Positions 1 through 22,185 are shown, numbered from the stretch's first letter. The stretch is 32,000 nt of DNA from Crocosphaera subtropica ATCC 51142 (GCF_000017845.1 NC_010547.1:30001-62000), one strand, 5' to 3'. A program made the numbers and translations. Notes: a model not told the origin generated them from the letters alone.

Positions 1-1
1 T

Positions 2-1441
2 AATCAATTACAAATTGAGCAAGAAGGAAAAACATTAGAAATCCGTAGTATTGAAAATAAAGGAGACGGATTTATTGTTGTTAAAGTTAATGTGTCTCCT
101 GATGCTAATAAAGAACAGATTCATGATAGTTTCGTACAAAACTATGAACTAGCACTTAAGACAATTGAAGAAAAATACCAAGCCGAATTAAGGGGAAGAC
201 AAGGACAAATAGAACTCTATCGTCAACAATTAGAATACGAACGACAACATTACCGCAAACAAAATGCTAATTTACAAAAAATTATTGATTTACTCGCGAA
301 TCAACCCGTTAATGTATCTATTAATCTTCCCCAAGATGAGGTTGCCATAGCATCAAAAGAATCGATTGGTCAACTGTTTATTTTGACAATTAATCAGGGA
401 AGTTTAGAGCAAGGATTTTCTCCTGTGATTGGACAGATTTGGAGTCAAGGACGTTTATTACCGACTCAACATATCGGACAATTACCCCCAGCACCCGCTT
501 TAAAAGAACTCTATCAAGATTGGCTTTCAGTATATCAAAGTTTGAATGATAATTTTCGGACAATTCAACCCCTTCCTAGTAATACAAATGGATCTTGGCT
601 ATCTTTCACTGAAGCTTTTGAGGAATTGTTAAATAAATGGTTAAACTCTGATGAGTTTCGCCCCATCGATAAGCAGCTACGGGAAGTATTTAGTCGCTCT
701 GAAGAAATCCGAATTATTATTCAATCTCATGATTACTATATCAAAAGTTTTCCCTGGCATCTCTGGGATTTTTTGAAGTCCTATCGTCAAGCTGAAGTGG
801 CTTTTAATGAACCCTATTTTGAGCAGACAAATACTAAAGTTTCTCCAAGACATCTTGTCAGAATTTTAGCAATTTTTGGGAATAGTGAAGGTCTGAATTT
901 GGTCGAAGATAGACAAGTTTTAGAAAATTTATCTGAGCAAGCTATCATCGAATACTTAGTTGAACCGAGTTTCTTTGAGTTAAGTGAGACACTGCGTCAT
1001 TGTGAGGGATGGGATATTATTTGCTTTGCCGGACATAGTTATAGTTATGAACAAGGAAATCGGGGAATTATTCAAATTAACTCCAGAGAAAAATTAACCC
1101 TTGAACAACTAAAACACTCCTTAGAATTTGCGATTGAAAAGGGATTGAAATTAGCAATTTTTAATTCTTGTGATGGGTTAGGATTAGCACGACAAATGGC
1201 AAAAATGTCTATTCCTCAAGTCATTGTGATGCGCCAACCTGTACCAGATCGCGTGGCTCAAGTTTTTATTAAGAATTTTCTCAGTGCGTTTTTTCAAAAG
1301 AAATCTTTATACTGTTCTCTGAGAGAAGCGAGGGAAAGTTTACAGGGATTAGAAAGTGAATATCCTTGTGCAAGTTGGCTACCGATTATTTACCAAAATG
1401 TCTCCGAAATTCCCTTTAGTTTACAGAGTTTCAAGCAATAA
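2..1441 (+). CDS. CHAT-domain (caspase-like) protease, 5' end probably outside the window
   Basis: Track ORF 92..1441 starts at GTG, but the same frame has no stop back to nt 2 (NQLQIEQEGKTLEIRSIENKGDGFIVVKVN...), so the gene likely begins upstream. The C-terminal ~190 aa shows the CHAT His/Cys dyad context: CFAGHSY (His codon 1034-1036) and AIFNSCDG (Cys codon 1169-1171). A Q/E/R-rich coiled-coil-like stretch precedes it. Confidence 0.8.
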   Translation, partial: NQLQIEQEGKTLEIRSIENKGDGFIVVKVNVSPDANKEQIHDSFVQNYELALKTIEEKYQAELRGRQGQIELYRQQLEYERQHYRKQNANLQKIIDLLANQPVNVSINLPQDEVAIASKESIGQLFILTINQGSLEQGFSPVIGQIWSQGRLLPTQHIGQLPPAPALKELYQDWLSVYQSLNDNFRTIQPLPSNTNGSWLSFTEAFEELLNKWLNSDEFRPIDKQLREVFSRSEEIRIIIQSHDYYIKSFPWHLWDFLKSYRQAEVAFNEPYFEQTNTKVSPRHLVRILAIFGNSEGLNLVEDRQVLENLSEQAIIEYLVEPSFFELSETLRHCEGWDIICFAGHSYSYEQGNRGIIQINSREKLTLEQLKHSLEFAIEKGLKLAIFNSCDGLGLARQMAKMSIPQVIVMRQPVPDRVAQVFIKNFLSAFFQKKSLYCSLREARESLQGLESEYPCASWLPIIYQNVSEIPFSLQSFKQ

Positions 1442-1443
1442 GG

Positions 1444-2490
1444 CTAAACGATAAAAGATTCTAAAAAATTAGAATGTTCTAATTTAAGATAAATCTTAAA
1501 ATTATCACCAGGAGATGCGGTGAATTTTAATTGTAACCAATGATCTTCATCAGCTTTAGCCGCTAGATTTGGAATTTTATGATTGGATTGATCTAGTATC
1601 ATTAATTCGAGTTTTTTGGGTAAATAGATAGACTTATTGATTTTAGAAATGCGTAAATGAAGTTCTAATTTATTTTGAGCGATGCGTTGTTGTCTTATCT
1701 CTAAAGTCAAGGTTATATCAGGGGTTAAACTAATCTGTTTAATGCCACTGACCTCTGAATCATCTTCTTTTTCAGTAGTAAATTTTGTAGGTTTCCAATC
1801 ATGGAAAAATTGACCAGAAAACCATTTATCTAATTGAGTATTTGTTTGAGGAATTAACTGAACCGTTGAGGAAGTATTTACAATATTTTCTTCAAGAGAA
1901 TTGATGGAAAAGTATTCTTTAAAATTAATACTGTTAACTTCAATTTTAGTAATAAATTGATCACCTAATTCACTACTTAGTTGTAATTGAATTAAATTAT
2001 CTTGAGATTGAGTAGAAACTTGCTTAATAAGATTGCCAGCTTCATCTAATAGACTAAGTTTAAGTTGCTCTGGTAATGCTTTTTTATCGTCTGAAGAAAG
2101 AATTTGCAAGTGAATATTGTAGTGATCGAAGTCAATTGATTGAATAGTAACGCAAAAGATAATAAAGTCTTGCGTCAAATTGATTAATTTTGCTCTGGTA
2201 ACTGATGTTGTTTCTTGAGACGTATTACTGCGCCACGCAAACGCTGAGATTGTTTCTACAGGTTGCCAATTTTCTCCGAAAGAATTCTGAAACCATTGAC
2301 TTAAATTTTCCCATTTGTTTGTTTGAGAAATAGTTTTCAAACGAATATTGGTAATAGAAACACCTAATAATTTTTCAAGTTCTCCTGATTGCCAGAGTTG
2401 CTGTAAATATTCAAATGCTTCTGTTGTTCCTCTTAGTGTCAGTGAATTCTTGGGTTGATTTTCATTCATTTCCATCGTTGAATTCCTCAT
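1444..2490 (-). CDS. DUF1822-like protein built from two tandem modules
   Basis: 348-aa ORF with two ~130-aa internal repeats. Each has a W..W motif (NLSQWFQNSFGENWQP / LDKWFSGQFFHDWKP), then LP.L.L..LD (ALPEQLKLSLLDEAGN / YLPKKLELMILDQSNH), then G[DE].F...[IL] and a hydrophobic end (GDQFITKIEVN..KEYFSI / GDNFKIYLKLE..LESFIV). I recognise this pattern from the C-terminal half of cyanobacterial DUF1822 proteins (from memory, not searched). The start may be Met6 or Met8 (2475/2469). The ORF overlaps the upstream ORF. Confidence 0.6.
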   Translation of the reverse strand: MRNSTMEMNENQPKNSLTLRGTTEAFEYLQQLWQSGELEKLLGVSITNIRLKTISQTNKWENLSQWFQNSFGENWQPVETISAFAWRSNTSQETTSVTRAKLINLTQDFIIFCVTIQSIDFDHYNIHLQILSSDDKKALPEQLKLSLLDEAGNLIKQVSTQSQDNLIQLQLSSELGDQFITKIEVNSINFKEYFSINSLEENIVNTSSTVQLIPQTNTQLDKWFSGQFFHDWKPTKFTTEKEDDSEVSGIKQISLTPDITLTLEIRQQRIAQNKLELHLRISKINKSIYLPKKLELMILDQSNHKIPNLAAKADEDHWLQLKFTASPGDNFKIYLKLEHSNFLESFIV

Positions 2491-3148
2491 TGTTATTTAT
2501 CTCGATTTCTTGTAAGTCAACAAAGTCTATTTCATAGTGTTTTTTTAACTCCTCTAATAATTTGAATAGTTTAATAAGCTTCATTTTTTCTGGTGATTCA
2601 AGGGTGAATTCTTGAATATTTTTATCTTTTTGCTTTAATGTAAGAGGATAATTGAGTTTCAGATAAGTGAGAACTTGTACCCAAAATACTTTATTTTTAC
2701 ACAGAAAATCAGGATTTTGAAAATCAATAAATTCGGAAATAACTGGCTTGATTGACCTAGAAATATGGCTTTTGATATTATTCGTTTTCTTACGAATTTC
2801 TTCAGTCACAATTGTTTCTAGTGTAGCTTTGGAAGAGATAGATTGTCTGGCATACTTATTATAAAGATAAGCTTCGTATTTTTCCCTTGCAATTCCCTCA
2901 GCCTCAAAACCAGCTAGTAAATAGCAAATATATTCTTGATTAACTAGAGATAATTTTTTAATATCATCGCTTATATCCTGAAAAAAGAGACTAATGTCAA
3001 CTTCCCAAATTTTTTTGACGTCTTGGCAGATTTGACACATTAGAAATAGGGTTGGAACAAAATCTTCTTTGTCTATCTTAATCATGGAAGACCCATTTGA
3101 AACATTAATTCTGACAACTATCGTTGACTTAATTTTTTCAGTTGACAC
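2462..3148 (-). CDS. hypothetical protein, no recognisable domain
   Basis: 228-aa ORF from GTG 3148 (alternative ATG at 3085, MIKIDKEDF). K/E/I-rich and encoded by very AT-rich DNA. Its 3' end overlaps the next minus-strand ORF by 8-29 nt, implying one operon. Confidence 0.55.
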   Translation of the reverse strand: MSTEKIKSTIVVRINVSNGSSMIKIDKEDFVPTLFLMCQICQDVKKIWEVDISLFFQDISDDIKKLSLVNQEYICYLLAGFEAEGIAREKYEAYLYNKYARQSISSKATLETIVTEEIRKKTNNIKSHISRSIKPVISEFIDFQNPDFLCKNKVFWVQVLTYLKLNYPLTLKQKDKNIQEFTLESPEKMKLIKLFKLLEELKKHYEIDFVDLQEIEINNNEEFNDGNE

Positions 3149-3162
3149 AACGAGCGTTGTGT
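3145..3162. promoter_or_regulatory. perfect 18-bp palindrome ACACAACG-AG-CGTTGTGT in the divergent control region
   Basis: Read directly: 8-bp arms with a 2-nt spacer. It is overlapped by a TTGACA hexamer (3142-3147) and by the GTG start proposed for the 228-aa ORF. Confidence 0.4.
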
Positions 3163-3337
3163 TCCTTCTTTGCCCTCTTCCTTAATAATTATAGAAAGAT
3201 TAGCCTATCTAGTAAATCTATCTACATTTTATACAAAACGAACCACTGTCAGCTAATCCTAAACATAGCAGATTGTCCTTATAACTTCCCAAGTTTAACC
3301 ATTTATATTTTGTCAACCTTATCCTATAGTATGTGAT

Positions 3338-6300
3338 ATGAACCCTCAAGAGACAATTAACTGGATAAAAGCTCAGAGGAATAAACCATTGAGTTATCTA
3401 CAAAAAACTATCTTGCTCAAAAGTTGGGAAGGAAGAAAGTACGAGCAAATTGCGCAAGAAACTGGCTACGATTCAGAATATGTAAAAGATACAGGATATC
3501 GCTTATGGAGGTTGCTTTCCGAACTTCTTGGAGAACAAGTAAACAAAAAGAATTTTAAAGCTCACTTAGAACAATATAATCATTCGAGTTTCATTCCTAA
3601 ATCCTATCATAATTGGGGAAATGCGCCAGATTTACCGAACTTCTTTGGACGCACTCAAGAATTAGAAACTTTAAAACAATGGATTTTACAAGAAAGATGT
3701 CAGTTAATTGCTATTGTTGGATTGGCTGGCATTGGCAAAACCCAACTGTCAGTTAAGTTGGGAAAAGGTGGAATTGGAAAAACTGAGTTATCACTAAAAT
3801 TAGCTCGTAGCATTAAAGAAGAATTTGACTATATAATTTGGCGAAGTCTGCTCAATGCTCCCTCTGTAACTGATATAATTAGTGACCTTATTAAATATCT
3901 CTCCAATCAACAAGAAGTTACTCCGCCAAAAACCTTAAATGCTCAAATTTTGCAATTGCTTTCCTATTTACAAAAGTATCGTTGTTTAATCATTCTTGAT
4001 AATGCAGAAACCCTTCTACAAAAAGAAACGAATACCCTAAAATATCTTCAAGGATATGAAGGATATGGTCAGCTATTCGAGACAATCGGACAAGTTGCTC
4101 ATCAAAGTTGTTTCTTATTAACCAGTCGAGAAAAACCACAAACAATCTGTCAACTAACAGCCAAAATAAATACAGTTCGGTTTCTAGAATTACAAGGACT
4201 AAATTATTTAGAAGGACAAAAAATTTTTAAAAATATTGAAGATCCCAAATTTCCTTATATTGGATCAGAGCAAGAATGGAAAGAAGTTATTGATCTTTAT
4301 AATGGAAATCCCCTTGCTCTCAAACTGACGGCTCACCATATTAAAGAAGTCTTTTTTGGAAATATTGCTAATTTTCTCCAAAAAGGTAAACTAATTTTTA
4401 ACGATCTTCAAGAGTTATTGAACTGGCATTTTGAGCGTCTTTCTCTTCAAGAAAAAGAAATTATAATTTGGCTAGGGAATAATCGTGAATCTACGTCCTT
4501 GGAGCAACTCACAGAAGATTTAGTTTCTTCAAACGCCAAAGCACAAGTTGCCAGTAATCTACAATCATTACAACGGCGAATTCCCTTAGAAAAAAGTTTA
4601 ACTGGCTTTAGTTTACAACCAGTATTAATTGAATATATTACCGAAATTTTAATTGAAGAAGTTAGTGAAGAAATTATCCAAGGTAACATTGAAACATTAA
4701 ATCGCTATGCTTTACTAAGAGCGTTAGGAAAAGACTATCTCAGAGAAACACATATTCGTTTAATTCTTAAGCCAATTTTTGAACGACTTCTTGAATACTG
4801 GGGAGAACAAACTGCGCTAGAAAACCAGATTAAACAGATACTCGAAAAAATGCAATCGCAATCCTTTGTTGGTTATGGTGTTGGAAATTTACTCAACCTA
4901 CTTTGCCAAATGAATGCTGATTTGAAAGGGTATGATTTTTCTGGTTTAGAAATTCGGCAAGCCTATCTTCAAGGTATGAACTTAGCTCATGTTAACTTTA
5001 TCAATGCTGAGTTTAGCAAAACCGTTTTTACACAATCCTTTGGGGGGATTCATGGATTAGCGTTTAGTCCCGATGGTCAACGGTTAGCCGCTGGAGATTC
5101 TCAGGGGAAAATTCGGATCTTTCGAGTGGTAGATGGACAACAAATTCTAACCCTTGGTACGCATCGTTGGTGGACAGTTTCTGTTTCTTTTAGTCCTGAT
5201 GGCCAAAAATTGGTGAGTAGCAGTTTAGATCCCACGGTTAAATTATGGGATTTACAAACGGGTCAATGTCTTCATAATTTACAAGGACACAGTAAATATG
5301 TTTGGTCAGTGATCTATAGTCCCGATGGCCGAATCATTGCTAGTGCTAGTGATGACGAAACGATTAAACTGTGGGATAGTAACACAGGTCAATGCCTTAA
5401 AACCTTAACCGGTCATACTGATTGGGTTGTCGGAGTAGCTTTTAGTAGAGATAGTCAACATTTAATCAGTGGTAGTTATGACAATGACATTAAATTATGG
5501 GATATTGCGACAGGAAAATGTTTAAAAACTTTCCAAGGACACCAAGATGCGGTTTGGATAGTCAATTTTAGTTCTGATGGTCAAACTATCTTCAGTTCAA
5601 GTTGCGATAAGACTGTAAAAATCTGGAATGTTAGTACAGGAGAATGTCTCAAGACTTTACGGGGACACGCTAAAGAAATTAAAGCCATGTCTGTTAGTCC
5701 CGATGGAAATACTATTGTTAGTGGCTGTTTTGAACCAACTGTAAAGCTTTGGGATGCTAAGACAGGTAAATGTCTGAATACATTGCTTGGACATTTGACA
5801 GGAATACGAACTGTAGCTTTTAGTCCTGATGGTCAAATTGTAGCCACAGGCGATAATGACCAAACAATCAAGCTATGGAAAATTAAAACAGGAGAATGCT
5901 TACAGACTTGGCAAGGATACACTAACTGGATGTGGTCAGTTGCTTTTAGTTCTGATGGTCGAACCGTCGTTAGTGGGGGTGTCGATAAAATTTTGAGGCT
6001 TTGGGATATTCAAACAGGAAGATGTTTAAAGTCCTTAAGTGGACATGAGGCATGGATTTGGTCAGTAAATATTAGTGCTGATGGTCGCATAGTTGCCAGT
6101 AGTGGTGATGATGAAACCATCAGACTTTGGGATATAAAAACGGGACAATGTATCAGGACTCTACGACATTCAGTTGATCACTATCAAGGTGGAACTTGGG
6201 CAGTTGCCTTTAGTCTCAATGGTCAATATATTGCTAGTGGTTCTCAAGACTCCCTGGTGAAGCTTTGGGATGTACAGACGGGTGAACTGATTACAATTTT

Positions 6301-6907
6301 TGATGAGCATAAAAATTGGATTTGGTCTGTGGCGTTTAGTCCCGATAGTAAGATTTTAGCCAGTGGTAGCGATGACCAAACGATTAAACTTTGGGACATT
6401 AAAACAAAAAAGTGTATCAATACTTTAACTGGACACACTAATAAAGTTAGATCGATTGCTTTCGGTAATAATAGTCAATTTTTAGTCAGTGGAAGCGAGG
6501 ATCATACTGTTAAATTATGGGATATTACAACTGGAGATTGCTTAAAAACGTTTGAAGGACATCAAGGATGGATTTGGTCAGTAGATTTTAGTGCCAATGG
6601 TAAATATATTGCTAGTGCTAGTGAAGATACAACCGTTAAATTGTGGAATGTCGCTACAAGAGAATGTCTCTATACTTTTAGGGGACATAAAGGATTAGTC
6701 AGATCAACAGCTTTTAGTGCTGATAGTAAAGTGGTTCTTACTGGCAGCACTGATGGCACTCTTAAACTATGGGATGTCGTTACTGGTGAATGTTTGAAGA
6801 CTATGCAAGCATCTAGACCCTATGAAGGGATGAATATTACTGGAGTTAAAGGCCTTACGCAAGCACAAAAAATGATACTTAAAGATTTAGGAGCGGTAGA
6901 AAAGTAA
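3338..6907 (+). CDS. STAND NTPase: N-terminal HTH + NB-ARC/AP-ATPase + 14 WD40 repeats
   Basis: 1189-aa ORF. aa 1-75 form an HTH resembling sigma-70 region 4/LuxR ([40 protein letters not shown]). aa 120-330 carry NB-ARC-type motifs: Walker A GLAGIGKT plus a second GKGGIGKT, Walker [24 protein letters not shown]. aa 568-1147 are 14 WD40 repeats. Confidence 0.93.
5039..6778 (+). repeat. 14 tandem WD40-coding repeats (~126-nt period), enough for two 7-bladed propellers
   Basis: Fourteen units of the form ..FSPDG..[IL][AV]S.S.D.T[IV]KLWD..TG.C..T..GH.. were counted in the translation from [13 protein letters not shown] to TLKLWDV. Confidence 0.9.
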
Positions 6908-7069
6908 TTACTTTGAATTTGAAGGAGATTTTTTTTCCAAATCTTTACATTCGTTATTTAAACATTCTTCTCCCCAAAGCTGAGTCAGTCTCACTAAGTA
7001 GTAACTTTGCTCATCAACAGCTTTTTTATCCAGATGGCTATAATACCTTTGAAGTTCTTTCTTGTTCAT
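6908..7069 (-). CDS. possible small protein (53 aa), unknown function
   Basis: Hand-translated ATG 7069 to TAA 6908: MNKKELQRYYSHLDKKAVDEQSYYLVRLTQLWGEECLNNECKDLEKKSPSNSK. It is below the ORF-track size cutoff. Its stop abuts the stop of the WD40 gene (6905-6907). No clear Shine-Dalgarno. Confidence 0.25.
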   Translation of the reverse strand: MNKKELQRYYSHLDKKAVDEQSYYLVRLTQLWGEECLNNECKDLEKKSPSNSK

Positions 7070-7122
7070 GATTTTTATTCACTGATGTTTTTACCTACTT
7101 TATTGATGCCAAATTGTAGTTT

Positions 7123-7160
7123 GGGCATTAAATCAAATCTTAATATCTAATTTAATGCCC
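7123..7160. repeat. perfect 11-bp inverted repeat GGGCATTAAAT / ATTTAATGCCC with a 16-nt loop
   Basis: Read directly. A third partial copy (GATGCCAAA, 7105-7113) can pair with TTTGGGCAT (7120-7128) as a mutually exclusive alternative hairpin. Confidence 0.6.
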
Positions 7161-7194
7161 ATCGCTAAAAAACGAAAAACTACAAAAAATTACC

Positions 7195-8226
7195 TTACAA
7201 AGTTCGCTTTTTGAACTTTGAAGCTAATCCTAATCCACCCATTGCTAGAAAACTGAGAACAGTACCAGGTTCAGGAACAGACTCTGGATTCGGTTCTGGT
7301 TCATCTGAACTTTCAGAAAAAACTAAACCTGTGGGTGTTGTGATCCCACTGGCAAAAGTTCCAACAGGGATATCGTTCTCTACGTCAAACTCAAATACTT
7401 GACCTCCAAAGAAACTCGTTGCAAACAAGTTGCCATTGGGTCCAAAGGCAAGACCTCCAACGGCAAAACCACTAGCTCCGCTAACAGTTCCTAGAAAATT
7501 ACCACTACTGTCATATTTCAGTATATTCCTACTTCTTGATGCAACAAAGAGATTGCCATTAGAATCAAAGCTAAAATCACTAGGATCTAAAAATAGGGAA
7601 CTATCGCTAGGATTGGCTTGACCAAAAATTCCCAGGAAATTCCCATCAGGATCATATTCTAGTATCCCTTCAAATGTAACTGTAAATAAATTTCCATTAG
7701 GACCAAAAGACAAGTCTTCTGGTCCATCTAAAGAGTTATTAATATCTCCGCCAGTAGTGGCAAAAACACCAAGAAGATTACCGTTACTATCGTACTCCAA
7801 TATTTGATCTCGCAAACCATCAGAAACAAATAAATTTCCATTAGAATCGAAGTCTAAGCCAGTAGGAACGAATGGGAATGGACCGGGACCACTACCTGCT
7901 TGATCAGCATCAACAAACACACCGAGAAACGTTCCGTTTTCTCCATCAAATTCTAGTATATTTGAATCACCGCCACTAGTTACAAAGAGATTTCCATTAG
8001 GACCTATGATTAAAGAGTTAGGCCCATCTAAATCACTATCTGTACGATTAGCTTCGCCGAAAACCCCCAGCAAAGTTCCGTCATCATTGTATTCTAGTAT
8101 TTCACCATTATTAAGTGAACTAATAAATAAAGATGAAGCATCAGCGGGTTTGATGGCTAAAATTGTCAACATGGGTAAAAAAATAGATACCCACATATTA
8201 GCTATAACCGAAGCATTTTTACTCAT
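7195..8226 (-). CDS. PEP-CTERM-anchored secreted beta-propeller (NHL/SMP-30-like repeats)
   Basis: 343-aa ORF with a signal-like N-terminus (MSKNASVIANMWVSIFLPMLTILAIKPADA). About six repeats of GPNGNLF...ILE[YF]D..G.[FL]LG[VIT]F. C-terminal VPEPGTVLSFLAMGGLGLASKFKKR is a PEP-CTERM sorting signal. Confidence 0.85.
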   Translation of the reverse strand: MSKNASVIANMWVSIFLPMLTILAIKPADASSLFISSLNNGEILEYNDDGTLLGVFGEANRTDSDLDGPNSLIIGPNGNLFVTSGGDSNILEFDGENGTFLGVFVDADQAGSGPGPFPFVPTGLDFDSNGNLFVSDGLRDQILEYDSNGNLLGVFATTGGDINNSLDGPEDLSFGPNGNLFTVTFEGILEYDPDGNFLGIFGQANPSDSSLFLDPSDFSFDSNGNLFVASRSRNILKYDSSGNFLGTVSGASGFAVGGLAFGPNGNLFATSFFGGQVFEFDVENDIPVGTFASGITTPTGLVFSESSDEPEPNPESVPEPGTVLSFLAMGGLGLASKFKKRTL

Positions 8227-9716: not shown

Positions 9717-12700
9717 ATGGCTAATATTTTCAGACCCACTAAGAAGGGTTTATCCTGCCCTATTTGCGGAGACACCACTGGGGATTGTAGAATTCTACCC
9801 GACGACAGTGTGTTATGCCACGAAGCCGCCTATGAAACCGACTTAGTTGTTGACAATTACAAATTTATTAGAACCGTAGATCCTGCGCCTTGGGGATACT
9901 TTGTGCAGCAAGATGAGTGCGCTCGTGATGCAAGGCAGTTAGAGCGATTTTTAAGGCGAACTAAGACTGAGAAGAAGAAAAAAGACCAAAGACAGCTAAA
10001 GAATGCACTCGGCAGTAAGGACTTTGATAAGATTTTCAAATCACTAAGAAATCCCACTGGACTAGACAAAGACCATCGCCAGGATCTTATTCAGCGCGGG
10101 CTATCAGAAAAGGACATAGAACGTTTCGGCTTTTTCTCCTTAGAAAAAGATCAAGACACTGTCGTTGGAGTACATTGGACATTTCCAGGGGTTTATAAAA
10201 ATAAGTTTAGCCTCAGAGATAGAGGGTACAGTGTACCGGCCTTTACCAAAGAAGGGCTAGTCCAAGGATATCAAATCCGTCGAGATCCGAGTCAAGAGGA
10301 GAAGAAAGGGGCCAAGTACGTTTGGCCGAAAACTGCACTGAGTAGTCACGTGGTGGTTAATAAGGAATTAGAATTACCGTTAACCTACGTTGATTATTAC
10401 GGGAAAGGGGGTGATATTGTAATTCTCGTAGAGGGATTTCTAAAAGCGATTATTGCCTCGAAGATTACAGGTTATCCCGTAATAGGAGCAGCCGGGGGAG
10501 CGTTTGCCTCAAGTCCCAATCAGCTAAAAGCTTTGTTATATGACTTTGAAGAAGTTTGGATATGTCCCGATGGAGGAGACGCTATCAATCCTCGTGTTTT
10601 TGGACGAATGGTGTCCCAGTTCAATAAAATCGGTCAGATTCGATCAAATATTAAAGTAAAATGGTGGGGGCAAGTCACCAAAACAAACGGCGATGTCGAT
10701 GAAATCAGCAAAGAGACATTCGATAATGCAGAGACCCTAAAACCGCAAGAATTCATTCGTCTTTGTAACCGCGAACAACGTAAACATCTACTCAAAGAAG
10801 AACAAAAAGCACTCAGACAGCTTAGCCTCAAACCTTTTAAAACAATAGACGAACGTTACTTACCTGACTTGGAGACTCTTATTCCTGAGTTAAAGGGTAT
10901 TGTTGCCCTGAAAAGTCCCAAAGGAACAGGAAAATCTTATCAAATCAACAAAGTCATTGAACGAGCTAAGTTAGAGGGACGCAAAATCCTGACCATTACG
11001 CCGCGTATTGCCCTAGGACGAGAGCAAGCCATTAAATGGGATGTTGAGTGGATCGGTGATTTAAAAGGAAACACACGAACCCTACTATGGGAAAATATCA
11101 CAGATTTAGGGTTGTGTTGGGATAGCTTGTGGAAACTAAGTGAAAGTCAGTGGTCAAACACATTGATCATTATTGATGAAGCGGAACTTGCCATGAATCA
11201 TTTCTTACTCAGTTCAACTTGTAGTGAACGTCGGGCGCAGATTTTAGCTACCCTAGAAACCTTAATTCCAGAATGTTTGAAACAAGACGGGTGTTTATTA
11301 GTCGCTGACGCAGATTTAACCGATCTTTCCTTAAACTATTTTAGGACGTTAGCGCCTGGTACTGATACCAAACTAATCGTCAATAAAGGCTCCAAAGTAC
11401 CGACCTGGGATATCTTATTTTGGAAAGGAGGCAGCAAAGATGCCATTGTACAGCAAATCTTTGACCGGTTAAAAAGTCCCATACACGAAGAAAGTGGACC
11501 TCGCCAAAGACGCCTCGCAGTTGCTTGTGACAGTCAAGCAGAAGCAGAAGCTATTGAAAAAGCAGTGTTAGCTGACGATCCCACTATTAACGTGGTCAGA
11601 ATAGATCGCAAAACGACAGAAACCGACTTCGGTAAAGCCTTCATGGAGAACCCCAACGAATCTATCAAAGACCTTAGACCGACATTGTTCCTGTTTACTC
11701 CTTCGATGGGTGCTGGTGTCAGTATTGATGTGGACTGGTTCGATGAGATGTATGGGTTATTTTTTGGAACGTTAGTGCCGAGTCAAAGCCGTCAGATGTT
11801 AGGAAGAATCCGAACACCGATTCCTCGATATATCTGGTGTAAAAACAGGGGGATTATCAATCATGGTGTCATTCAAAACGAAGCCTTAGTAATGACCTCA
11901 GAAATTAAATCCCATCTATTTGAGTTCAATAAAACAACTGGATTACTCATTGATGTCTCAAAAGTTGTGGCAGGGGAAACCGCAGAAGATGCTGAATTAA
12001 TGAAGACCCTACTTACCAAGTTATGGGATGAAAAAAATGGGACTTGGGACAATGTTCATATCGAGTATTATGCCAAAATTATTGCTAGAAACAACTGGGA
12101 TAAAAAGCAGTTAGCCGATACATTAATCCGAGAGCTAAAAGCAGAAGGTCATCGCCTTGAAATTGTCGAAAAAGGGGGTAAAACCGATAAAGGAGAACAA
12201 GTCAGAGAAGCTAAGAAACAACTTCCTGGCTTAGAGGCAGAAGCCATCATGAATGCTAAGACGATCACCTTTGAAGAAGCGCAGATGCTTGAGAATAAGC
12301 TCACAACGACTGAGGAAGAAAGGTTACAGATAACGAAGGCGTATCTTATGCAAGAATTACCTGGATTACCTTTAACCAAAGAGTTTATCCAAAAAGCGAT
12401 CACTGAAAACAGGCGAAAGTGGCTCAATGGTCATAAAATGTGGTGGTATTGCACCCATCCTGAAGATACCGTCGAACGAGATTTAGCAATCTGGAAAAGC
12501 CATTTACACAGCTTCACTCAAGGGGTCGCCTTTTTGCCCGATATCAAAACCCTGAGTCTTCAAATCAAAGTATTGAACAACATCGGCATTATTAAATTAG
12601 TAAAGCACTTGATTGATAACCCTCAAGAAGTCATATCAAAAGACTCCCCCATGCTTTTAGAAATCCTTGCTAAAGCAAGACGTAGTAAAAATCTAAAAAC

Positions 12701-13256
12701 AGCCTATTCCATAACCGTAACAAAAAAATCTCAAGCCATTCGCACGATAAATAAGTTCTTAGAAAAAGTGGGAATGAAACTGAAATTTTACAAAGAGGGG
12801 CCAGACAAAGTTAGGTTGTATCAATTAGATAGAAGCTTAATTGATGACCCTGACCGCCAAGCTGTCTTAGCGAGTTTAGATGAAAGAAAACGATTACGAG
12901 AAGAAGCCAAAAAAGAACGAGAAAATGAAAATCTCAGAATTATCTTTGGGGAAGTGAAAGCAGAAAAGAAAACTCCCGTTTACACGACTCCTCTAAATAA
13001 AGTGGCTCAAAGACTAATCAACTCTATGGTAGAGGCAGCTAATGCTCCAAAAGAGTTAAGAGGGTTACTACGAAAGGCGATCGCATTGATTAAAGTTCAA
13101 CATAGTAGTATAAATATTTTACAATTTTGGAATACTATTCCACAGACTTTAAAAATTATTCTCAAAGCAAGTTGTAAAAAAGAAATGGCCTCACTCAAAG
13201 ATGCTATCCAGCGCACTAGAAGAACTTCAACCAATCCATCTTACCGTCCTATTTAA
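9717..13256 (+). CDS. primase-helicase-type replication protein (Zn finger + TOPRIM/DUF3854-like + P-loop NTPase), CyRepA-like
   Basis: 1179-aa ORF. Zn-binding CPICGDTTGDC...LCH at aa 14-35. TOPRIM-like acidic motifs ILVEGF (Glu239) and ICPDGGDA (aa 282-289). Walker A SPKGTGKS (aa 400-407) and Walker B LIIIDEAE (aa 483-490). The long K/E-rich C-terminal ~400 aa has no motif I recognise. Confidence 0.85.
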   Translation: MANIFRPTKKGLSCPICGDTTGDCRILPDDSVLCHEAAYETDLVVDNYKFIRTVDPAPWGYFVQQDECARDARQLERFLRRTKTEKKKKDQRQLKNALGSKDFDKIFKSLRNPTGLDKDHRQDLIQRGLSEKDIERFGFFSLEKDQDTVVGVHWTFPGVYKNKFSLRDRGYSVPAFTKEGLVQGYQIRRDPSQEEKKGAKYVWPKTALSSHVVVNKELELPLTYVDYYGKGGDIVILVEGFLKAIIASKITGYPVIGAAGGAFASSPNQLKALLYDFEEVWICPDGGDAINPRVFGRMVSQFNKIGQIRSNIKVKWWGQVTKTNGDVDEISKETFDNAETLKPQEFIRLCNREQRKHLLKEEQKALRQLSLKPFKTIDERYLPDLETLIPELKGIVALKSPKGTGKSYQINKVIERAKLEGRKILTITPRIALGREQAIKWDVEWIGDLKGNTRTLLWENITDLGLCWDSLWKLSESQWSNTLIIIDEAELAMNHFLLSSTCSERRAQILATLETLIPECLKQDGCLLVADADLTDLSLNYFRTLAPGTDTKLIVNKGSKVPTWDILFWKGGSKDAIVQQIFDRLKSPIHEESGPRQRRLAVACDSQAEAEAIEKAVLADDPTINVVRIDRKTTETDFGKAFMENPNESIKDLRPTLFLFTPSMGAGVSIDVDWFDEMYGLFFGTLVPSQSRQMLGRIRTPIPRYIWCKNRGIINHGVIQNEALVMTSEIKSHLFEFNKTTGLLIDVSKVVAGETAEDAELMKTLLTKLWDEKNGTWDNVHIEYYAKIIARNNWDKKQLADTLIRELKAEGHRLEIVEKGGKTDKGEQVREAKKQLPGLEAEAIMNAKTITFEEAQMLENKLTTTEEERLQITKAYLMQELPGLPLTKEFIQKAITENRRKWLNGHKMWWYCTHPEDTVERDLAIWKSHLHSFTQGVAFLPDIKTLSLQIKVLNNIGIIKLVKHLIDNPQEVISKDSPMLLEILAKARRSKNLKTAYSITVTKKSQAIRTINKFLEKVGMKLKFYKEGPDKVRLYQLDRSLIDDPDRQAVLASLDERKRLREEAKKERENENLRIIFGEVKAEKKTPVYTTPLNKVAQRLINSMVEAANAPKELRGLLRKAIALIKVQHSSINILQFWNTIPQTLKIILKASCKKEMASLKDAIQRTRRTSTNPSYRPI

Positions 13257-13297
13257 GAGCTTTGAGAGCCGTTAGCACGGCATCAACCTAGATATAG

Positions 13298-13344
13298 CTT
13301 CATCGAATTTGATGGCTTTCATAGAAAGTCTTACGGCGATGAAG
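13298..13344 (+). other. nested hairpins between the rep gene and the next gene
   Basis: Outer perfect 8-bp inverted repeat CTTCATCG (13298-13305) / CGATGAAG (13337-13344). Inner CTTTC (13316-13320) / GAAAG (13324-13328). Confidence 0.4.
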
Positions 13345-13371
13345 TACCTTGTACACTGACCAACTAAAACT

Positions 13372-14472
13372 ATGGCATTTAACCCTGGAAAGAAACGTAA
13401 CAAAACCATCGACACCTCAGCTTTTGACGGGCTAAAAGAGTTTGAAACTCGTGATAATTCAACGGCTTATTGTCAATTAGTTAATCCCGAAAGATTATCC
13501 TCTGAGAAGAAAATCCGCGATAGTAACTGTCCTTATGGAGTTTTCATTCCTTTAGAACAAGCAGAACGGGTGTCATTTACTCCTACTGAATGGTTTGAGG
13601 AAATTACATTGACATTCAATGAAGATTCTCCCAATCCAACAACGGTACAAGGATACATCACAAAGCGATTACGCTGTTGTATTATCCATCAGTCTGACAC
13701 GATCGAACTTCAGGAGAAAACAGCGAGGGGATGGTTTTACAAAGGACCTGCCTATAAATATGGAAAGCCGACTAAGTATAAAGAACTTCTCGATGGCGAT
13801 CGGGAAAACTACCGTATGCGAACTCGATATTTACTATTGTTTGTAGACGAAGATAACAACCCATTGCACGAAGTTCCCTTACAGTTGGGATTAGGTGCAG
13901 GAACTGGGGGTGCGATCGGCTCAGAAGTTAGTAGTTTGAGAGATGAGTTTAACCAAGCTTATTCGGAAGCGACTGGTAATAAAGGCGTGGCTCTTGAAGA
14001 TGAAGTTCATTCGTTAACTGTCTTAGACATGGAATTAGATTTCCATAAAAGCCAGGGTAAGTCACCTTTTGTCGTACCTATAAGACGACTACACCCGGTA
14101 ACAAAAGCCGAGCTAATTGACGTTGAACACGAAAAAGAGAATAAAGGTCGAGTAGTTACATTGATTGGAGAGCCTTTCAATAACATTTTAATCCCCAAAG
14201 GCTCTAAAGCTGGTGAGCTAATATTCTCTCTAAGAGAAACTCATAGCGATTTTCCTATTCCTAATGGGGGTGCTGAAGAAGATGAAACTTCATCCAAATC
14301 CTCTGACTCATCTAATCAAGAAAATGACACCTATTCTTGGGAGAATGATCCAGACTTCTTCGAGAAGTGTACCCCTACTCCACAACCTCAAGATAAACAA
14401 GTAACTGAGCGTCCGAAGGCAGTATCAAAAGTTGAGGAAACTGAAGAGGAAGAAACCCCTATCCCCTTCTAA
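13372..14472 (+). CDS. hypothetical protein with disordered acidic tail ending in an SSB-like tip (..EEEETPIPF)
   Basis: 366-aa ORF. The first ~290 aa look globular with no motif recognised. The last ~75 aa are S/E/D/P/Q-rich low complexity. The final residues PIPF follow an acidic run, like the D-D-D-I-P-F tip of bacterial SSB. Confidence 0.8.
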   Translation: MAFNPGKKRNKTIDTSAFDGLKEFETRDNSTAYCQLVNPERLSSEKKIRDSNCPYGVFIPLEQAERVSFTPTEWFEEITLTFNEDSPNPTTVQGYITKRLRCCIIHQSDTIELQEKTARGWFYKGPAYKYGKPTKYKELLDGDRENYRMRTRYLLLFVDEDNNPLHEVPLQLGLGAGTGGAIGSEVSSLRDEFNQAYSEATGNKGVALEDEVHSLTVLDMELDFHKSQGKSPFVVPIRRLHPVTKAELIDVEHEKENKGRVVTLIGEPFNNILIPKGSKAGELIFSLRETHSDFPIPNGGAEEDETSSKSSDSSNQENDTYSWENDPDFFEKCTPTPQPQDKQVTERPKAVSKVEETEEEETPIPF

Positions 14473-14480
14473 CTCAACGT

Positions 14481-14509
14481 GAGTAGTCCATTTGGGCTAC
14501 TCCTTTTTT
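14481..14509 (+). terminator. rho-independent terminator
   Basis: 9-bp stem GAGTAGTCC / GGGCTACTC (one G-U pair), loop ATTT, then C + TTTTTT (14504-14509). It sits 9 nt after the stop of the 366-aa ORF. Confidence 0.7.
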
Positions 14510-14536
14510 AATTCAATCATGAAACGAGGTTTAATT

Positions 14537-16651
14537 ATGGCAAAAAATGTTTTAGTAATCGAGGCGCCAGGAAAACGTAAAAAATTAGAGAAATTTCTAG
14601 GAGCAGACTGGACGGTGATTGCTACAGGTGGGCATATCCGAGAGTTTGATAAGTCAGGAAATCATAATCTTGGGTTTGAGCTAACACCCAAGGGGACGGT
14701 GATACCGAAGTTTGTGCCTCGCTCTGAGCGTAGCAAAAAGGTGATCCGACAATTACAAATGACGGCGAAAAGGACAAACAGTGAAAGAATTTTTATCGCC
14801 ACCGACCCAGACAGAGAAGGAGAGTGCATCGGGTGGCACGCGGCTCAAGTAATGGGAATCAAGAACCCTCAACGTATTGTGTACTCCGAAATTTCAGAGA
14901 AAGCAGTTAGGAGAGCTATCGCTAATCCTCGGTTTCTCGACACCAACCTTGTAGCATCTGCCCTCGGACGTTCCACCTTAGACAAACTGATCGGGTACAC
15001 CGGTTCACCTTTGTTGTGGGATTACGTCGAAGGAGCCAAAAGCATGGGGAGGGTTCAAACTCCGGTCTTAACTCTAATCTGTGAACGGGAAGAAACCATC
15101 CAAAACTTTAAACCAGAGACTTACTATTCTGTATGGAGTTTATATAAAGAGGGTCTCAAAGCGTTTTACGCAGGAGAAAGCAACGACAATTCCGAAGATA
15201 GCGAGGAAGAAAGAGATGATAGCCAAACTCCGAAAGAAACACAAAAAGAGTCCTTGCGGGTAACAAGTGAAGCAGAGGCTAATCGTCTTGTGGCGATCGC
15301 ACGGAACAACTCTCACAACGTCGTCTCCCTCGAAACCAAGAAAAGCAAGAAGTCCCCACCTGCACCGTTTACAACGAGTAACCTACAACAAGCAGCAGGG
15401 GCTAGACTCAAGTTTTCCCCTGACCAAACAATGAAGTTAGCTCAGAAATTGTATGAGGCGGGAGTAATTACCTATCATCGAACTGACTCAACAGTAATCT
15501 CCGGTGATTTCTGCAAAGTCATACGACAATATCTCAAGGCAAATGACCCTGAGAACCTACCTAAGTCAGTGATCAAGCATCGGCAATCTAAGAACGCTCA
15601 AGAAGCTCACGAAGCCATTAGACCTGTAGATTTAGCCAAAACCGAGACAGACATCGCTAGTGAACTAGGAGATGCGGCGGGAAAGCTATACCAACTAATC
15701 TGGTTTAGAACAGTAGCCAGTCAATGTAAGCCCGCCGAGTTAGATAAAACCACCATCACCACCCAGTCTGATACTGTGTTCTGGAAAGCAAAAGGACAAG
15801 TCGTAACCTTCGCTGGCTATCTTCGTTATTGGAGAGACTTAGGGGCGGATTCTGAATTACCCTCAGTAGAGAATCATCAGGTTGTAACGTTAGAAGATGC
15901 TCAGGCTGAAAAGAAGCAAACTAAGCCTCCTTCTCGCTTTACTGAGGCTCAAATGGTAAAGGTGAGGGAAAAGAAAGGAATTGGACGACCTAGCACGTTT
16001 TCACCGACAATCCAAACCCTCAAAGATAGAAACTACGTTGCGGTTGAAAAGCGAATGCTCAAACCAACCCAGGTAGGACTCAAAGTCTACCACTTCGTCA
16101 GAGAGCATTTAACGGAACTAGGGACAGTCGAGTTTACGGCTCAGATGGAGTCCCATCTCGATGCGATCGCCAAAGGTGATGAAAAATGGCAGCCCTATGT
16201 ATGTCAATTTCATTTTGACCATTGGCAACCCACCTTGATCAAGATAGCACAAACCCTAGGAAAGCCAGCCGTTAAATCGTTCAATGGTAATGGCAAATCC
16301 TTAGAAAAATCGAGGACTAAATGCCCAAAATGCAATGTTGCTATGAGTAAGGTTCCATCTAAGTCTAAGAAGTTACATCGACCTTATTTCCTCAAATGTG
16401 AAGACTGCGAAACAGTCATGTTTTACAACAAGGAACGTAAGCAATGGGAATCACCAGGAACCAAATCGCCGACGCAAGAAACTAAGGCAAGTTGTCCAAA
16501 GTGTCAAAAGCCACTGCACTTAAGAGAATATCGCAGTAAGAAAGACGGAAAGCAAAAGAAGTTATTGAAGTGTCTTGACTGCGACGATGTGGTGTTCTTT
16601 GAGTCACGTGGTTGCTTTTGGTCTAAGCAATTTGGAGAAATAAATCTTTAG
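14537..16651 (+). CDS. type IA DNA topoisomerase with two C-terminal zinc ribbons
   Basis: TOPRIM motifs VLVIEAPGK and IATDPDREGE. Active-site Tyr context VITYHRTDS. C-terminal CPKC..x..CEDC and CPKC..x..CLDC. I prefer ATG 14537 (MAKNVLVIEAPGK) to the track's TTG 14492, which lies inside the upstream terminator hairpin. Confidence 0.93.
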   Translation: MAKNVLVIEAPGKRKKLEKFLGADWTVIATGGHIREFDKSGNHNLGFELTPKGTVIPKFVPRSERSKKVIRQLQMTAKRTNSERIFIATDPDREGECIGWHAAQVMGIKNPQRIVYSEISEKAVRRAIANPRFLDTNLVASALGRSTLDKLIGYTGSPLLWDYVEGAKSMGRVQTPVLTLICEREETIQNFKPETYYSVWSLYKEGLKAFYAGESNDNSEDSEEERDDSQTPKETQKESLRVTSEAEANRLVAIARNNSHNVVSLETKKSKKSPPAPFTTSNLQQAAGARLKFSPDQTMKLAQKLYEAGVITYHRTDSTVISGDFCKVIRQYLKANDPENLPKSVIKHRQSKNAQEAHEAIRPVDLAKTETDIASELGDAAGKLYQLIWFRTVASQCKPAELDKTTITTQSDTVFWKAKGQVVTFAGYLRYWRDLGADSELPSVENHQVVTLEDAQAEKKQTKPPSRFTEAQMVKVREKKGIGRPSTFSPTIQTLKDRNYVAVEKRMLKPTQVGLKVYHFVREHLTELGTVEFTAQMESHLDAIAKGDEKWQPYVCQFHFDHWQPTLIKIAQTLGKPAVKSFNGNGKSLEKSRTKCPKCNVAMSKVPSKSKKLHRPYFLKCEDCETVMFYNKERKQWESPGTKSPTQETKASCPKCQKPLHLREYRSKKDGKQKKLLKCLDCDDVVFFESRGCFWSKQFGEINL

Positions 16652-21517: not shown

Positions 21518-21570
21518 AATGAATTCTACCTTTACGAGATTATTTATACTGAGTCAACGCTCGTTGAACT

Positions 21571-22185
21571 CTACTGCCAAAGATAAAGCAGGACAAATAA
21601 GATAATCCAAATAACATCAACAAAATGCCAAAATAAGGAAGTTGCCATAATCCCAAAATGCCCTGTATCATAATTACCTGGAATAAAAGAACGACCTAAC
21701 ATAATGCCTTGCAAAAGAATCCCTGTAAAAACGTGCAAACCGTGAAATCCTGTTAATAAATAAAACATTCCCTCAAAGACACCAGAAGTAAAGCCAAATT
21801 TTAACCCATGCCATTCAATGCCTTGACCAACTAAAAAGTAAGTTCCCATTGCCATAGTCACTAATAAAAACAATCGAAAACCCCATAATTTATGACGTTC
21901 CAAAAATTGCTCAGCAACATAAATAACAAAACTGCTAGACACTAAAATTACTGTATTAATGGCAGGTTCTTTAATTTCTAATCCTGATACTCCAGTAGGC
22001 AACCAGTCAACGGTCGTTGTTTTATAGATAATATACCCTGCAAAAAAACTCAGAAAAATGATACTTTCTGATAACAAAAACACAATAAAACCAAACATAC
22101 TATTAGCTTGTTCATCATGTTCATGTTCTTGACTAAGATGATGCTCTAAATGGTCTAACTTCTCTGAGGTTAAAGAACTATCCAT
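21571..22185 (-). CDS. ctaE: heme-copper oxidase subunit III
   Basis: 204-aa polytopic ORF with FGFIVFLLSESIIFLSFF and FWHFVDVIWIILF motifs. It lies directly downstream of subunit I. Confidence 0.9.
   Translation of the reverse strand: MDSSLTSEKLDHLEHHLSQEHEHDEQANSMFGFIVFLLSESIIFLSFFAGYIIYKTTTVDWLPTGVSGLEIKEPAINTVILVSSSFVIYVAEQFLERHKLWGFRLFLLVTMAMGTYFLVGQGIEWHGLKFGFTSGVFEGMFYLLTGFHGLHVFTGILLQGIMLGRSFIPGNYDTGHFGIMATSLFWHFVDVIWIILFVLLYLWQ

Follow-up and report, generated by a model that had tools for sequence, protein, structure and literature searches.

A candidate three-gene, protease-gated transcription module of the EACC2-caspase/DUF1822 family in Crocosphaera subtropica

We analyzed a 32,000-nucleotide (nt) stretch of the Crocosphaera subtropica ATCC 51142 genome (GCF_000017845.1, NC_010547.1:30001–62000; hereafter, the window), at whose left end four open reading frames (ORFs) adjoin one another: a CHAT protease gene, a gene for a DUF1822-like protein (the partner), a 228-amino-acid (aa) ORF whose product we call X, and a gene encoding an HTH-NB-ARC-WD40 STAND protein. 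At a probability of about 0.6, we favor the reading that positions 1–3216 constitute a three-gene, protease-gated transcription module, a variant of the EACC2-caspase/extracytoplasmic function (ECF) sigma/DUF1822 type, and that the STAND gene is independent of it. A sequence-only reading of this DNA had supposed the gene combination to be undescribed; neighborhoods of EACC2-caspase, ECF sigma, and DUF1822 genes have, however, already been reported in silico (Kaur, Iyer, Burroughs & Aravind 2021, eLife 10:e70394; PMC8195603), and what is new is the sigma-less variant with the X family.

As we envisage it, the module would consist of a membrane sensor-protease and a convergent output pair, made up of X, with its CxxC and helix-turn-helix (HTH)-like segment replacing the sigma factor, and the coupled partner. 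X and the partner would form a complex, possibly completing a single TRADD-N-like alpha/beta domain from two halves, which the DUF1822 C-terminal domains (DUF1822-C) would present to the EACC2-caspase. A signal at the membrane sensor, triggered by phage or another stress, would activate the caspase, and its cut in the partner or in X would change the availability of X at the palindromic operator CAACGNNCGTTG and at further targets, if there are any. We infer such regulated proteolysis from the proposal of Kaur et al. and by analogy with two precedents: Csx29-Csx30-RpoE, where Csx29 cleaves Csx30, a binder of RpoE (PMC9825189), and CalpL-CalpT-CalpS (for CalpT, as cited in PMC12642450).

A sensor-protease of the EACC2-caspase family

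The four ORFs map to 92/2–1441 (+), 1444–2490 (−), 2462–3148 (−), and 3338–6907 (+), in agreement with the layout drawn from sequence alone: the CHAT stop at 1441 and the minus-strand stop at 1444 are spaced 2 nt apart, the minus-strand pair overlaps, and 189 nt separate 3148 from 3338 (about 297 nt if X begins at M37). Within the proposed module we recognized the following features (HMM, hidden Markov model).

1–1441, plus strand: 3′ part of the sensor-protease gene, whose start lies upstream of the window (comparison of the N-terminal 505 aa; Logan contig)
365–1420, plus strand: EACC2 + caspase constant module (BLASTP, alignment A2, and an in-house HMM covering aa 123–473)
1025–1039, plus strand: catalytic His in FAGHS, invariant in alignment A2
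1163–1177, plus strand: catalytic Cys in NSCDG, invariant in alignment A2
1444–2469, minus strand: partner protein, 341 aa from M8 (2469); the longest ORF reaches 2490 (348 aa) (Pfam, in-house HMM)
2445–2335, minus strand: partner segment resembling the second half of TRADD-N (TRADD-like_N E=0.009, profile positions 34–68)
~2307–1903 and 1836–1447, minus strand: tandem DUF1822 C-terminal domains of the partner (in-house HMM D1822C, aa 59–196 and 215–348)
2462–2469, minus strand: 8-nt overlap (ATGAATGA) joining the stop codon of X to the start codon of the partner, with the same geometry in homologous loci
2462–3040, minus strand: X protein (cce_4801), 192 aa from M37 by homologue alignment; the longest ORF begins at GTG 3148
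2953–2885 and 2779–2726, minus strand: HTH-like segment of X
2611–2465, minus strand: C-terminal beta-alpha-beta segment of X, with an acidic tail
3148–3159, no strand: palindrome CAACGAGCGTTG within ACACAACG-CT-CGTTGTGT, candidate operator upstream of X (exact pattern search)
3115–3126, no strand: imperfect (one-mismatch) palindrome copy CAACTATCGTTG, 33 bp from the first
3188–3216, minus strand: promoter-like TTTACT-17-TATAAT oriented towards X and lying immediately upstream of the palindromes (consensus match only)

The domain assignments made earlier held up in HMM searches, beginning with the protease, which matched Pfam CHAT at E=8e-14 and whose His/Cys dyad is intact. By BLASTP, its final ~350 aa correspond over their whole length to the N-terminal ~355 aa of CHASE2/CHAT proteins (38–47% identity, E 1e-63 to 1e-91), whose genes come immediately downstream of DUF1822 genes on cyanobacterial plasmids. 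This alignment identifies the C-terminal module of the CHAT protein with the constant module that Kaur et al. (2021) name "EACC2 + caspase." The gene is real, as had been read, but the window start cuts off its 5′ part: a Logan contig (L005) lengthens the protein to at least 864 aa, and the full protein probably measures ~940 aa. The added N-terminal part, which precedes the protease, contributes hydrophobic segments, pentapeptide repeats, and a coiled coil, giving an architecture of multiple transmembrane segments, pentapeptide repeats, coiled coil, EACC2, and CHAT caspase. Over its N-terminal 505 aa, the protein is 39–53% identical to 940–1100-aa proteins that share this architecture (in L027, L008, L014, L043, L051, L060, L083, L041, and L017), and the order with the sensor first and the protease last was found in at least 12 further proteins.

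We scanned species-representative genomes with the EACC2-caspase module, the DUF1822 alignment being too divergent to serve as a query, and obtained at least 595 matches. The 80 loci kept, all cyanobacterial, were analyzed with in-house HMMs together with 4 plasmid loci (84); the total of fetched loci came to 109, or ~1.6 Mb. Across the 84 loci, the canonical operon runs from sigma through DUF1822 (N- and C-terminal domains) and the EACC2-caspase-sensor gene to, often, a DUF928 gene. Of the 90 sampled EACC2-CHAT genes, 67 have a DUF1822 gene no more than 3 kb away, upstream and co-directional in 56 cases, and one locus (L014) has the convergent layout of the window, with a Sigma70_r2 protein filling the slot of the 228-aa gene. 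Together with the recurrence of X, partner, and CHAT genes described below, this bears out the suggestion that the CHAT, DUF1822-like, and 228-aa genes are functionally linked and not bystanders. In Floridaenema flaviceps (L049, 9924–11327), a single 467-aa protein comprises the DUF1822-associated sigma factor and a DUF1822 C-domain, without an N-domain, and its gene lies directly upstream of an EACC2-caspase gene. Because the sigma factor is here covalently fused to DUF1822-C, the fusion supports a role for this domain as a coupler of transcription factor to protease.

The family is also variable in other respects. Two loci (L043, 231–10499; L084, 4986–17508) each carry three paralogous EACC2-caspase genes in tandem, and one L084 protein holds two consecutive EACC2-caspase modules. 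At L010 (8938–9889), DUF1822 is present as overlapping separate ORFs for the N-domain (203 aa) and the C-domain (143 aa); either a frameshift or a real division of the gene could account for this.

X, its partner, and a candidate operator

The 228-aa ORF is identical to cce_4801. It had been taken for an orphan, a view that no longer stands: exhaustive phmmer searching found 8 homologues (147–240 aa), and a profile search found 11 more. Because all homologues align from M37, the product is probably 192 aa long. A word-indexed search of 5.8 billion proteins returned, for each of the two middle proteins, only the protein itself (one cluster each). The N-terminus of X carries a CxxC, and its close relatives hold a ~28-residue insertion within the HTH-like segment. 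Distant members join the family by hhalign (98%, E 2e-14) and match GerE (E=0.001–0.016) and Sigma70_r4_2 (E=0.02–0.13), all below cut-offs, with no such match for the window X. X itself was without a match in Pfam, NCBIfam, or PADLOC models, and a profile search of PDB sequences returned nothing.

We considered two derivations of X from known parts. We rejected the 228-aa ORF as the split-off N-terminal half of DUF1822: hhalign to the DUF1822 N-domain profile was empty, and X family members are encoded throughout by a gene of their own. Nor does hhalign support X as a divergent ECF sigma or a homologue of the STAND HTH, the sub-threshold HTH matches being confined to distant members. Against the DUF1822-associated sigma family, hhalign gave a probability of 0.3%, and no sigma match appeared in Pfam or NCBIfam; by these comparisons, the gene in the regulator slot is not recognizable as one for an ECF sigma.

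The genomic context of X was readable in 11 distinct loci. X overlaps the start of the next gene in 11/11, and that gene encodes a DUF1822 C-domain or, in L089 and L094, a 145–148-aa protein, and never a DUF1822 N-domain. A CHAT gene then follows in all 10 contigs that extend far enough past the pair (10/10), and the proteases are of the EACC2-caspase-NACHT (L087, L092, L096), TPR-CHAT (L089, L093, L094, L103, L108), or plain CHAT (L095) type. The CHAT gene is convergent in L093, L095, L103, and L108, as in the window. Since the overlap and the following CHAT gene recur across the readable loci, X, partner, and protease are, judged by gene context, a conserved triad in which X sits in the sigma slot. 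Two neighboring arrangements deserve mention on their own account. At L087 (11186–11684), a BrnT/BrnA-like toxin-antitoxin pair lies between the X-partner pair and the EACC2-caspase-NACHT gene. L106 (2229–6093) encodes an NB-ARC protein whose N-terminus (aa 18–68) matches the X-family profile, followed downstream by a Ser/Thr-kinase-like ORF and a gene with full TRADD-N; this locus links an X-type HTH, STAND, and TRADD-N.

The partner matches Pfam DUF1822 (PF08852) at E=2e-27 in two stretches. The DUF1822-like tandem noted earlier was found, with both copies falling on profile positions 178–369, the C-terminal half. Our in-house D1822N HMM had no match in the partner, which lacks the DUF1822 N-terminal domain. 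The protein probably starts at M8, which gives the 8-nt start/stop overlap of homologous loci. This geometry (ATGACTAA/ATGACTGA) recurs in L087, L089, and L092–L096; the 8-nt form ATGAnTrA is found in the window and a Planktothricoides-like clade, and the L110 overlap is 14–17 nt and out of frame. As read from the sequence, the 8-nt overlap implies translational coupling of X and partner. A programmed frameshift joining the two was rejected: the junction is without a slippery site fitting the required +1 shift, and termination-reinitiation is simpler.

In the partners, the initial ~45 residues match the TRADD-like_N model (PF20694) over positions 34–67 of its 69. The window partner scores 16.2 bits against a gathering cut-off of 23.7, over profile positions 34–68 alone, and the homologous partners at L089 (24.8 bits) and L094 (24.4 bits) exceed the cut-off. 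A Gloeothece PCC 7424 plasmid protein (L002), which the window partner matches by BLASTP at E=5e-15, has an N-terminal region, a full TRADD-like_N (46 bits, E=4e-12), and DUF1822-C; full TRADD-N with DUF1822-C also occurs in L013 and L107. We count L002, beside L049, as a second case in which one polypeptide joins a transcription factor to DUF1822-C. The C-terminus of X shows the beta-alpha-beta pattern of the missing first half of TRADD-N, and hhalign aligns it with that half in the expected register, though at no better than P=0.004. A more specific version of the module reading, which we hold to be doubtful, is that X and partner are split TRADD-N halves that would tether a palindrome-binding X to a caspase-docking DUF1822-C, with caspase cleavage freeing X to change transcription, possibly also at the cox cluster with its copies of the palindrome.

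A candidate target of X, the palindrome CAACGNNCGTTG, lies in exact form 47–190 nt upstream of X in 7 distinct loci, the window included, and nowhere else in the 109 fetched loci. The window X is only 23–26% identical to the X proteins of the other loci bearing it. Within the window we counted 5 matches with at most one mismatch (≤1), against 0.42 expected. Among the more distant X-like loci, CAAC-N4-GTTG variants are present in L103 and L108, and looser CAAC-N(2-6)-GTTG matches in L102. Conservation of a palindrome upstream of X lends indirect support to X as a DNA-binding protein. Two exact copies of CAACGNNCGTTG stand at the cox cluster (21555–21566 and 22008–22019), one immediately after the stop codon of COX3, the other within that gene; these may be regulon sites or coincidence.

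The STAND gene and competing explanations

The fourth gene comprises the following features.

3338–6907, plus strand: HTH-NB-ARC-WD40 STAND, 1189 aa (Pfam, homologue contexts)
~3338–3600, plus strand: N-terminal sigma-r4-like HTH
~3640–4340, plus strand: NB-ARC domain
3725–3766, plus strand: 14-aa in-frame insertion duplicating Walker A, aa 130–143 (alignment A4)
~5040–6800, plus strand: 14 WD40 repeats

Pfam returned NB-ARC at E=3e-13 and 14 WD40 stretches. The sigma-70-r4-like HTH read at the N-terminus was present as a Sigma70_r4_2 match, but at E=0.014 it fell below threshold. With an NTPase followed by a repeat array, and with Walker A present twice, the protein belongs with the NB-ARC/AP-ATPase clade. 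It is 42–45% identical to 4 homologues over the N-terminal 290 aa, and all 4 are without the 14-aa insertion. Between the copies of Walker A, 9 of 11 residues are conserved; because their DNA differs mostly at synonymous sites, the duplication is either old or a product of recombination, and because the DNA copies have diverged, a tandem-repeat search missed it. On PADLOC models, the protein gave a repeat-driven HEAT-ARM_XIII match and a weak PDC-S27 match (E=0.001).

That the STAND protein is an obligate fourth component, as the sequence-only reading had it, was not upheld. A search with its N-terminal 116 aa matched 79 sites, distributed over 62 cyanobacterial plasmids and almost all annotated as NB-ARC/WD40 proteins. 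On the strength of its homologues and their contexts, it is a self-contained member of a widespread cyanobacterial family and probably no obligate part of the module. The idea that all four genes are linked in other genomes stood in part: CHAT, DUF1822, and X recur together, but STAND adjacency is not conserved. Within the 84 loci, the STAND HTH occurs only inside fusion proteins at L015 (7200–9827) and L016 (4426–7011), from Scytonema and Brasilonema, which combine EACC2-caspase, the STAND-type HTH (aa ~415–505), and AAA_35 (Pfam E=8e-148); no DUF1822 gene lies near these fusions. Such fusions, those of EACC2-caspase with NACHT, and the L106 NB-ARC protein with its X-like N-terminus indicate that modules of this kind can be combined.

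Further right in the window come genes for a CyRepA1-family replication protein, a DUF5895 protein, and a topoisomerase, then the cox cluster and metE; the first three form a plasmid-type maintenance block at 9717–16651 (CyRepA1 family by NCBIfam, E=5e-103; topoisomerase of type IA). The replicon (429,701 bp, ~429.7 kb) is one that we take to be the linear chromosome of Cyanothece 51142. No CRISPR array or cas gene turned up in our ORF and Pfam survey of the window, in which no search was aimed at CRISPR. The two middle genes had been described as more AT-rich than their neighbors, which holds for total GC (0.30 versus 0.355 and 0.368) but not for GC at third codon positions (GC3), at 0.21–0.26 the same as in CHAT and STAND; the remaining window genes have 0.33–0.44. 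The low GC3 spans window positions 1–8226, taking in CHAT, DUF1822, X, STAND, and a ScyF-like NHL/PEP-CTERM gene (7195–8226), and this left block as a whole may have a different origin or age.

Several results weigh against the module as we have drawn it. For X, hhalign comparisons with the sigma family, the STAND HTH, and both DUF1822 domains gave nothing significant, and P reached ~0.01 at most when distant members were included. The AlphaFold2 model of X was of low confidence (predicted local distance difference test score, pLDDT, 56.6), and Foldseek found no match to it in the PDB at E<0.1. The split domain fares no better in two respects: Pfam on the concatenated X C-terminus and partner N-terminus did not extend the TRADD-like_N match into X, and AlphaFold2 of X fused to the partner N-terminus was uninformative (pLDDT 48). 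The locus with the closest X homologue, L110, has no full palindrome in the 438 nt upstream, and because most of the close X-type loci are related to one another, with a zwf neighborhood in common, part of the operator conservation could be common ancestry. CHAT, partner, and X are all without a match among PADLOC-DB v2 models, and the cleavage, complex formation, and DNA binding assigned to the module members are steps that we infer.

Three explanations compete with, or qualify, the module reading. Of these, ordinary envelope or stress signaling through proteolysis of a transcription-factor holder, as in ECF sigma/anti-sigma cascades, is a real if not a likely possibility, and would leave the mechanism unchanged while altering the role. 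The canonical relatives speak for it with their CHASE2 extracellular sensors, ECF sigma, and DUF928 gene, as do the stable chromosomal site beside zwf of X-type loci in one clade, the absence of PADLOC matches, and the extra exact palindromes at the cox cluster; the family is, however, highly paralogous and variable, with three tandem copies each in L043 and L084, is often plasmid-borne, and falls within the network of TRADD-N, caspase, and STAND domains attributed to conflict systems by Kaur et al. (PMC8195603). We regard as unlikely that all four genes make one integrated system, with STAND sensing an invader and controlling CHAT via the two small proteins, or its HTH acting at a shared divergent promoter. 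STAND does adjoin X divergently, with the palindromes in the shared intergenic region, GC3 is similarly low in all four genes, and domain-network links exist in the HTH behind EACC2-caspase with AAA_35, the EACC2-caspase-NACHT proteins (L087, L092, L096), and the X-like N-terminus on an NB-ARC protein beside a TRADD-N gene. Yet in the 84 other EACC2-CHAT loci we found no HTH-STAND gene standing separately within 10 kb (0/84), nor any in the other X-type loci; all 6 sampled STAND homologues (6/6), on cyanobacterial plasmids, have unrelated neighbors; where a plasmid bears a DUF1822 gene as well as a STAND gene of this kind, 35–75 kb separate them; and the duplicated Walker A may compromise the NTPase.

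Very improbable, in our view, is that the locus is a decaying remnant comprising a DUF1822 protein stripped of its N-domain, a functionless fast-evolving ORF, and a STAND protein with P-loop insertion damage. Self-only retrieval of the middle proteins in the 5.8-billion-protein search would fit decay, as would the missing N-domain with its doubled C-domain, the duplicated Walker A, and the low GC. All the ORFs are nevertheless intact and the catalytic dyad is invariant, at least 11 distinct loci pair X with an N-domain-less partner and conserve the start/stop overlap between them, and the Walker A copies hold 9/11 residues while varying at synonymous sites.

EACC2-caspase/DUF1822 modules are very common in cyanobacteria, and if the module reading is right, the window would represent a compact version with a transcription-factor-like X, a recognizable candidate operator, and a partner reduced to the DUF1822 C-domain, opening a way to what DUF1822 and bacterial TRADD-N-like segments do. 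It would bear on whether non-CRISPR bacterial caspases signal through transcription rather than killing. The split TRADD-N version, if true, would amount to a bacterial caspase-to-transcription pathway on a TRADD-N adaptor and a first function for DUF1822. The locus also carries a caution of method: in an accessory region, finding a STAND gene next door is no evidence that it belongs to a system.

Comparison with known systems

With the EACC2-caspase/ECF sigma/DUF1822 system, the window shares an EACC2 + caspase module with an intact dyad, an adjoining gene with a DUF1822 C-domain, a small upstream gene in the regulator slot, and a cyanobacterial setting, often on a plasmid or accessory replicon. 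It differs in that the protease module of that system is N-terminal and its gene co-directional, whereas here the module is C-terminal, behind a transmembrane-pentapeptide sensor, and the gene convergent. The unannotated X family stands in place of the ECF sigma, and the DUF1822 partner has no N-domain, a half TRADD-N-like N-terminus, and two C-domains.

Bacterial TRADD-N proteins paired with EACC2-caspase genes, and HTH domains N-terminal to TRADD-N, have been reported (Kaur et al. 2021; PMC8195603). The window partner resembles these in its match to the second half of TRADD-like_N, and the relatives L002, L013, and L107 carry full TRADD-N fused to DUF1822-C beside EACC2-caspase genes. The window partner differs in showing a half domain; the other half might come from the C-terminus of X, as the hhalign register weakly suggests, and such a split is not described in Kaur et al. 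(2021).

The STAND protein is alike in architecture to WP_011153809 (Synechocystis PCC 6803, pSYSG) and WP_010999686 (Nostoc PCC 7120, pCC7120alpha), and differs from cyanobacterial HTH-NB-ARC-WD40 proteins in its 14-aa Walker A duplication and in having a caspase module beside it.

The proposed logic of a sensor-activated protease, a cleavable holder, and a transcription-factor output is that of Csx29 (TPR-CHAT)-Csx30-RpoE, the type III-E Craspase, and of CalpL-CalpT-CalpS. Craspase uses a CHAT-family protease, and some X-type loci carry TPR-CHAT. X and partner, however, have no sequence similarity to Csx30, Csx31, or CalpT, CRISPR components are absent by our ORF and Pfam survey of the window, and the sensor is a membrane pentapeptide-repeat region; the analogy is a functional one only.

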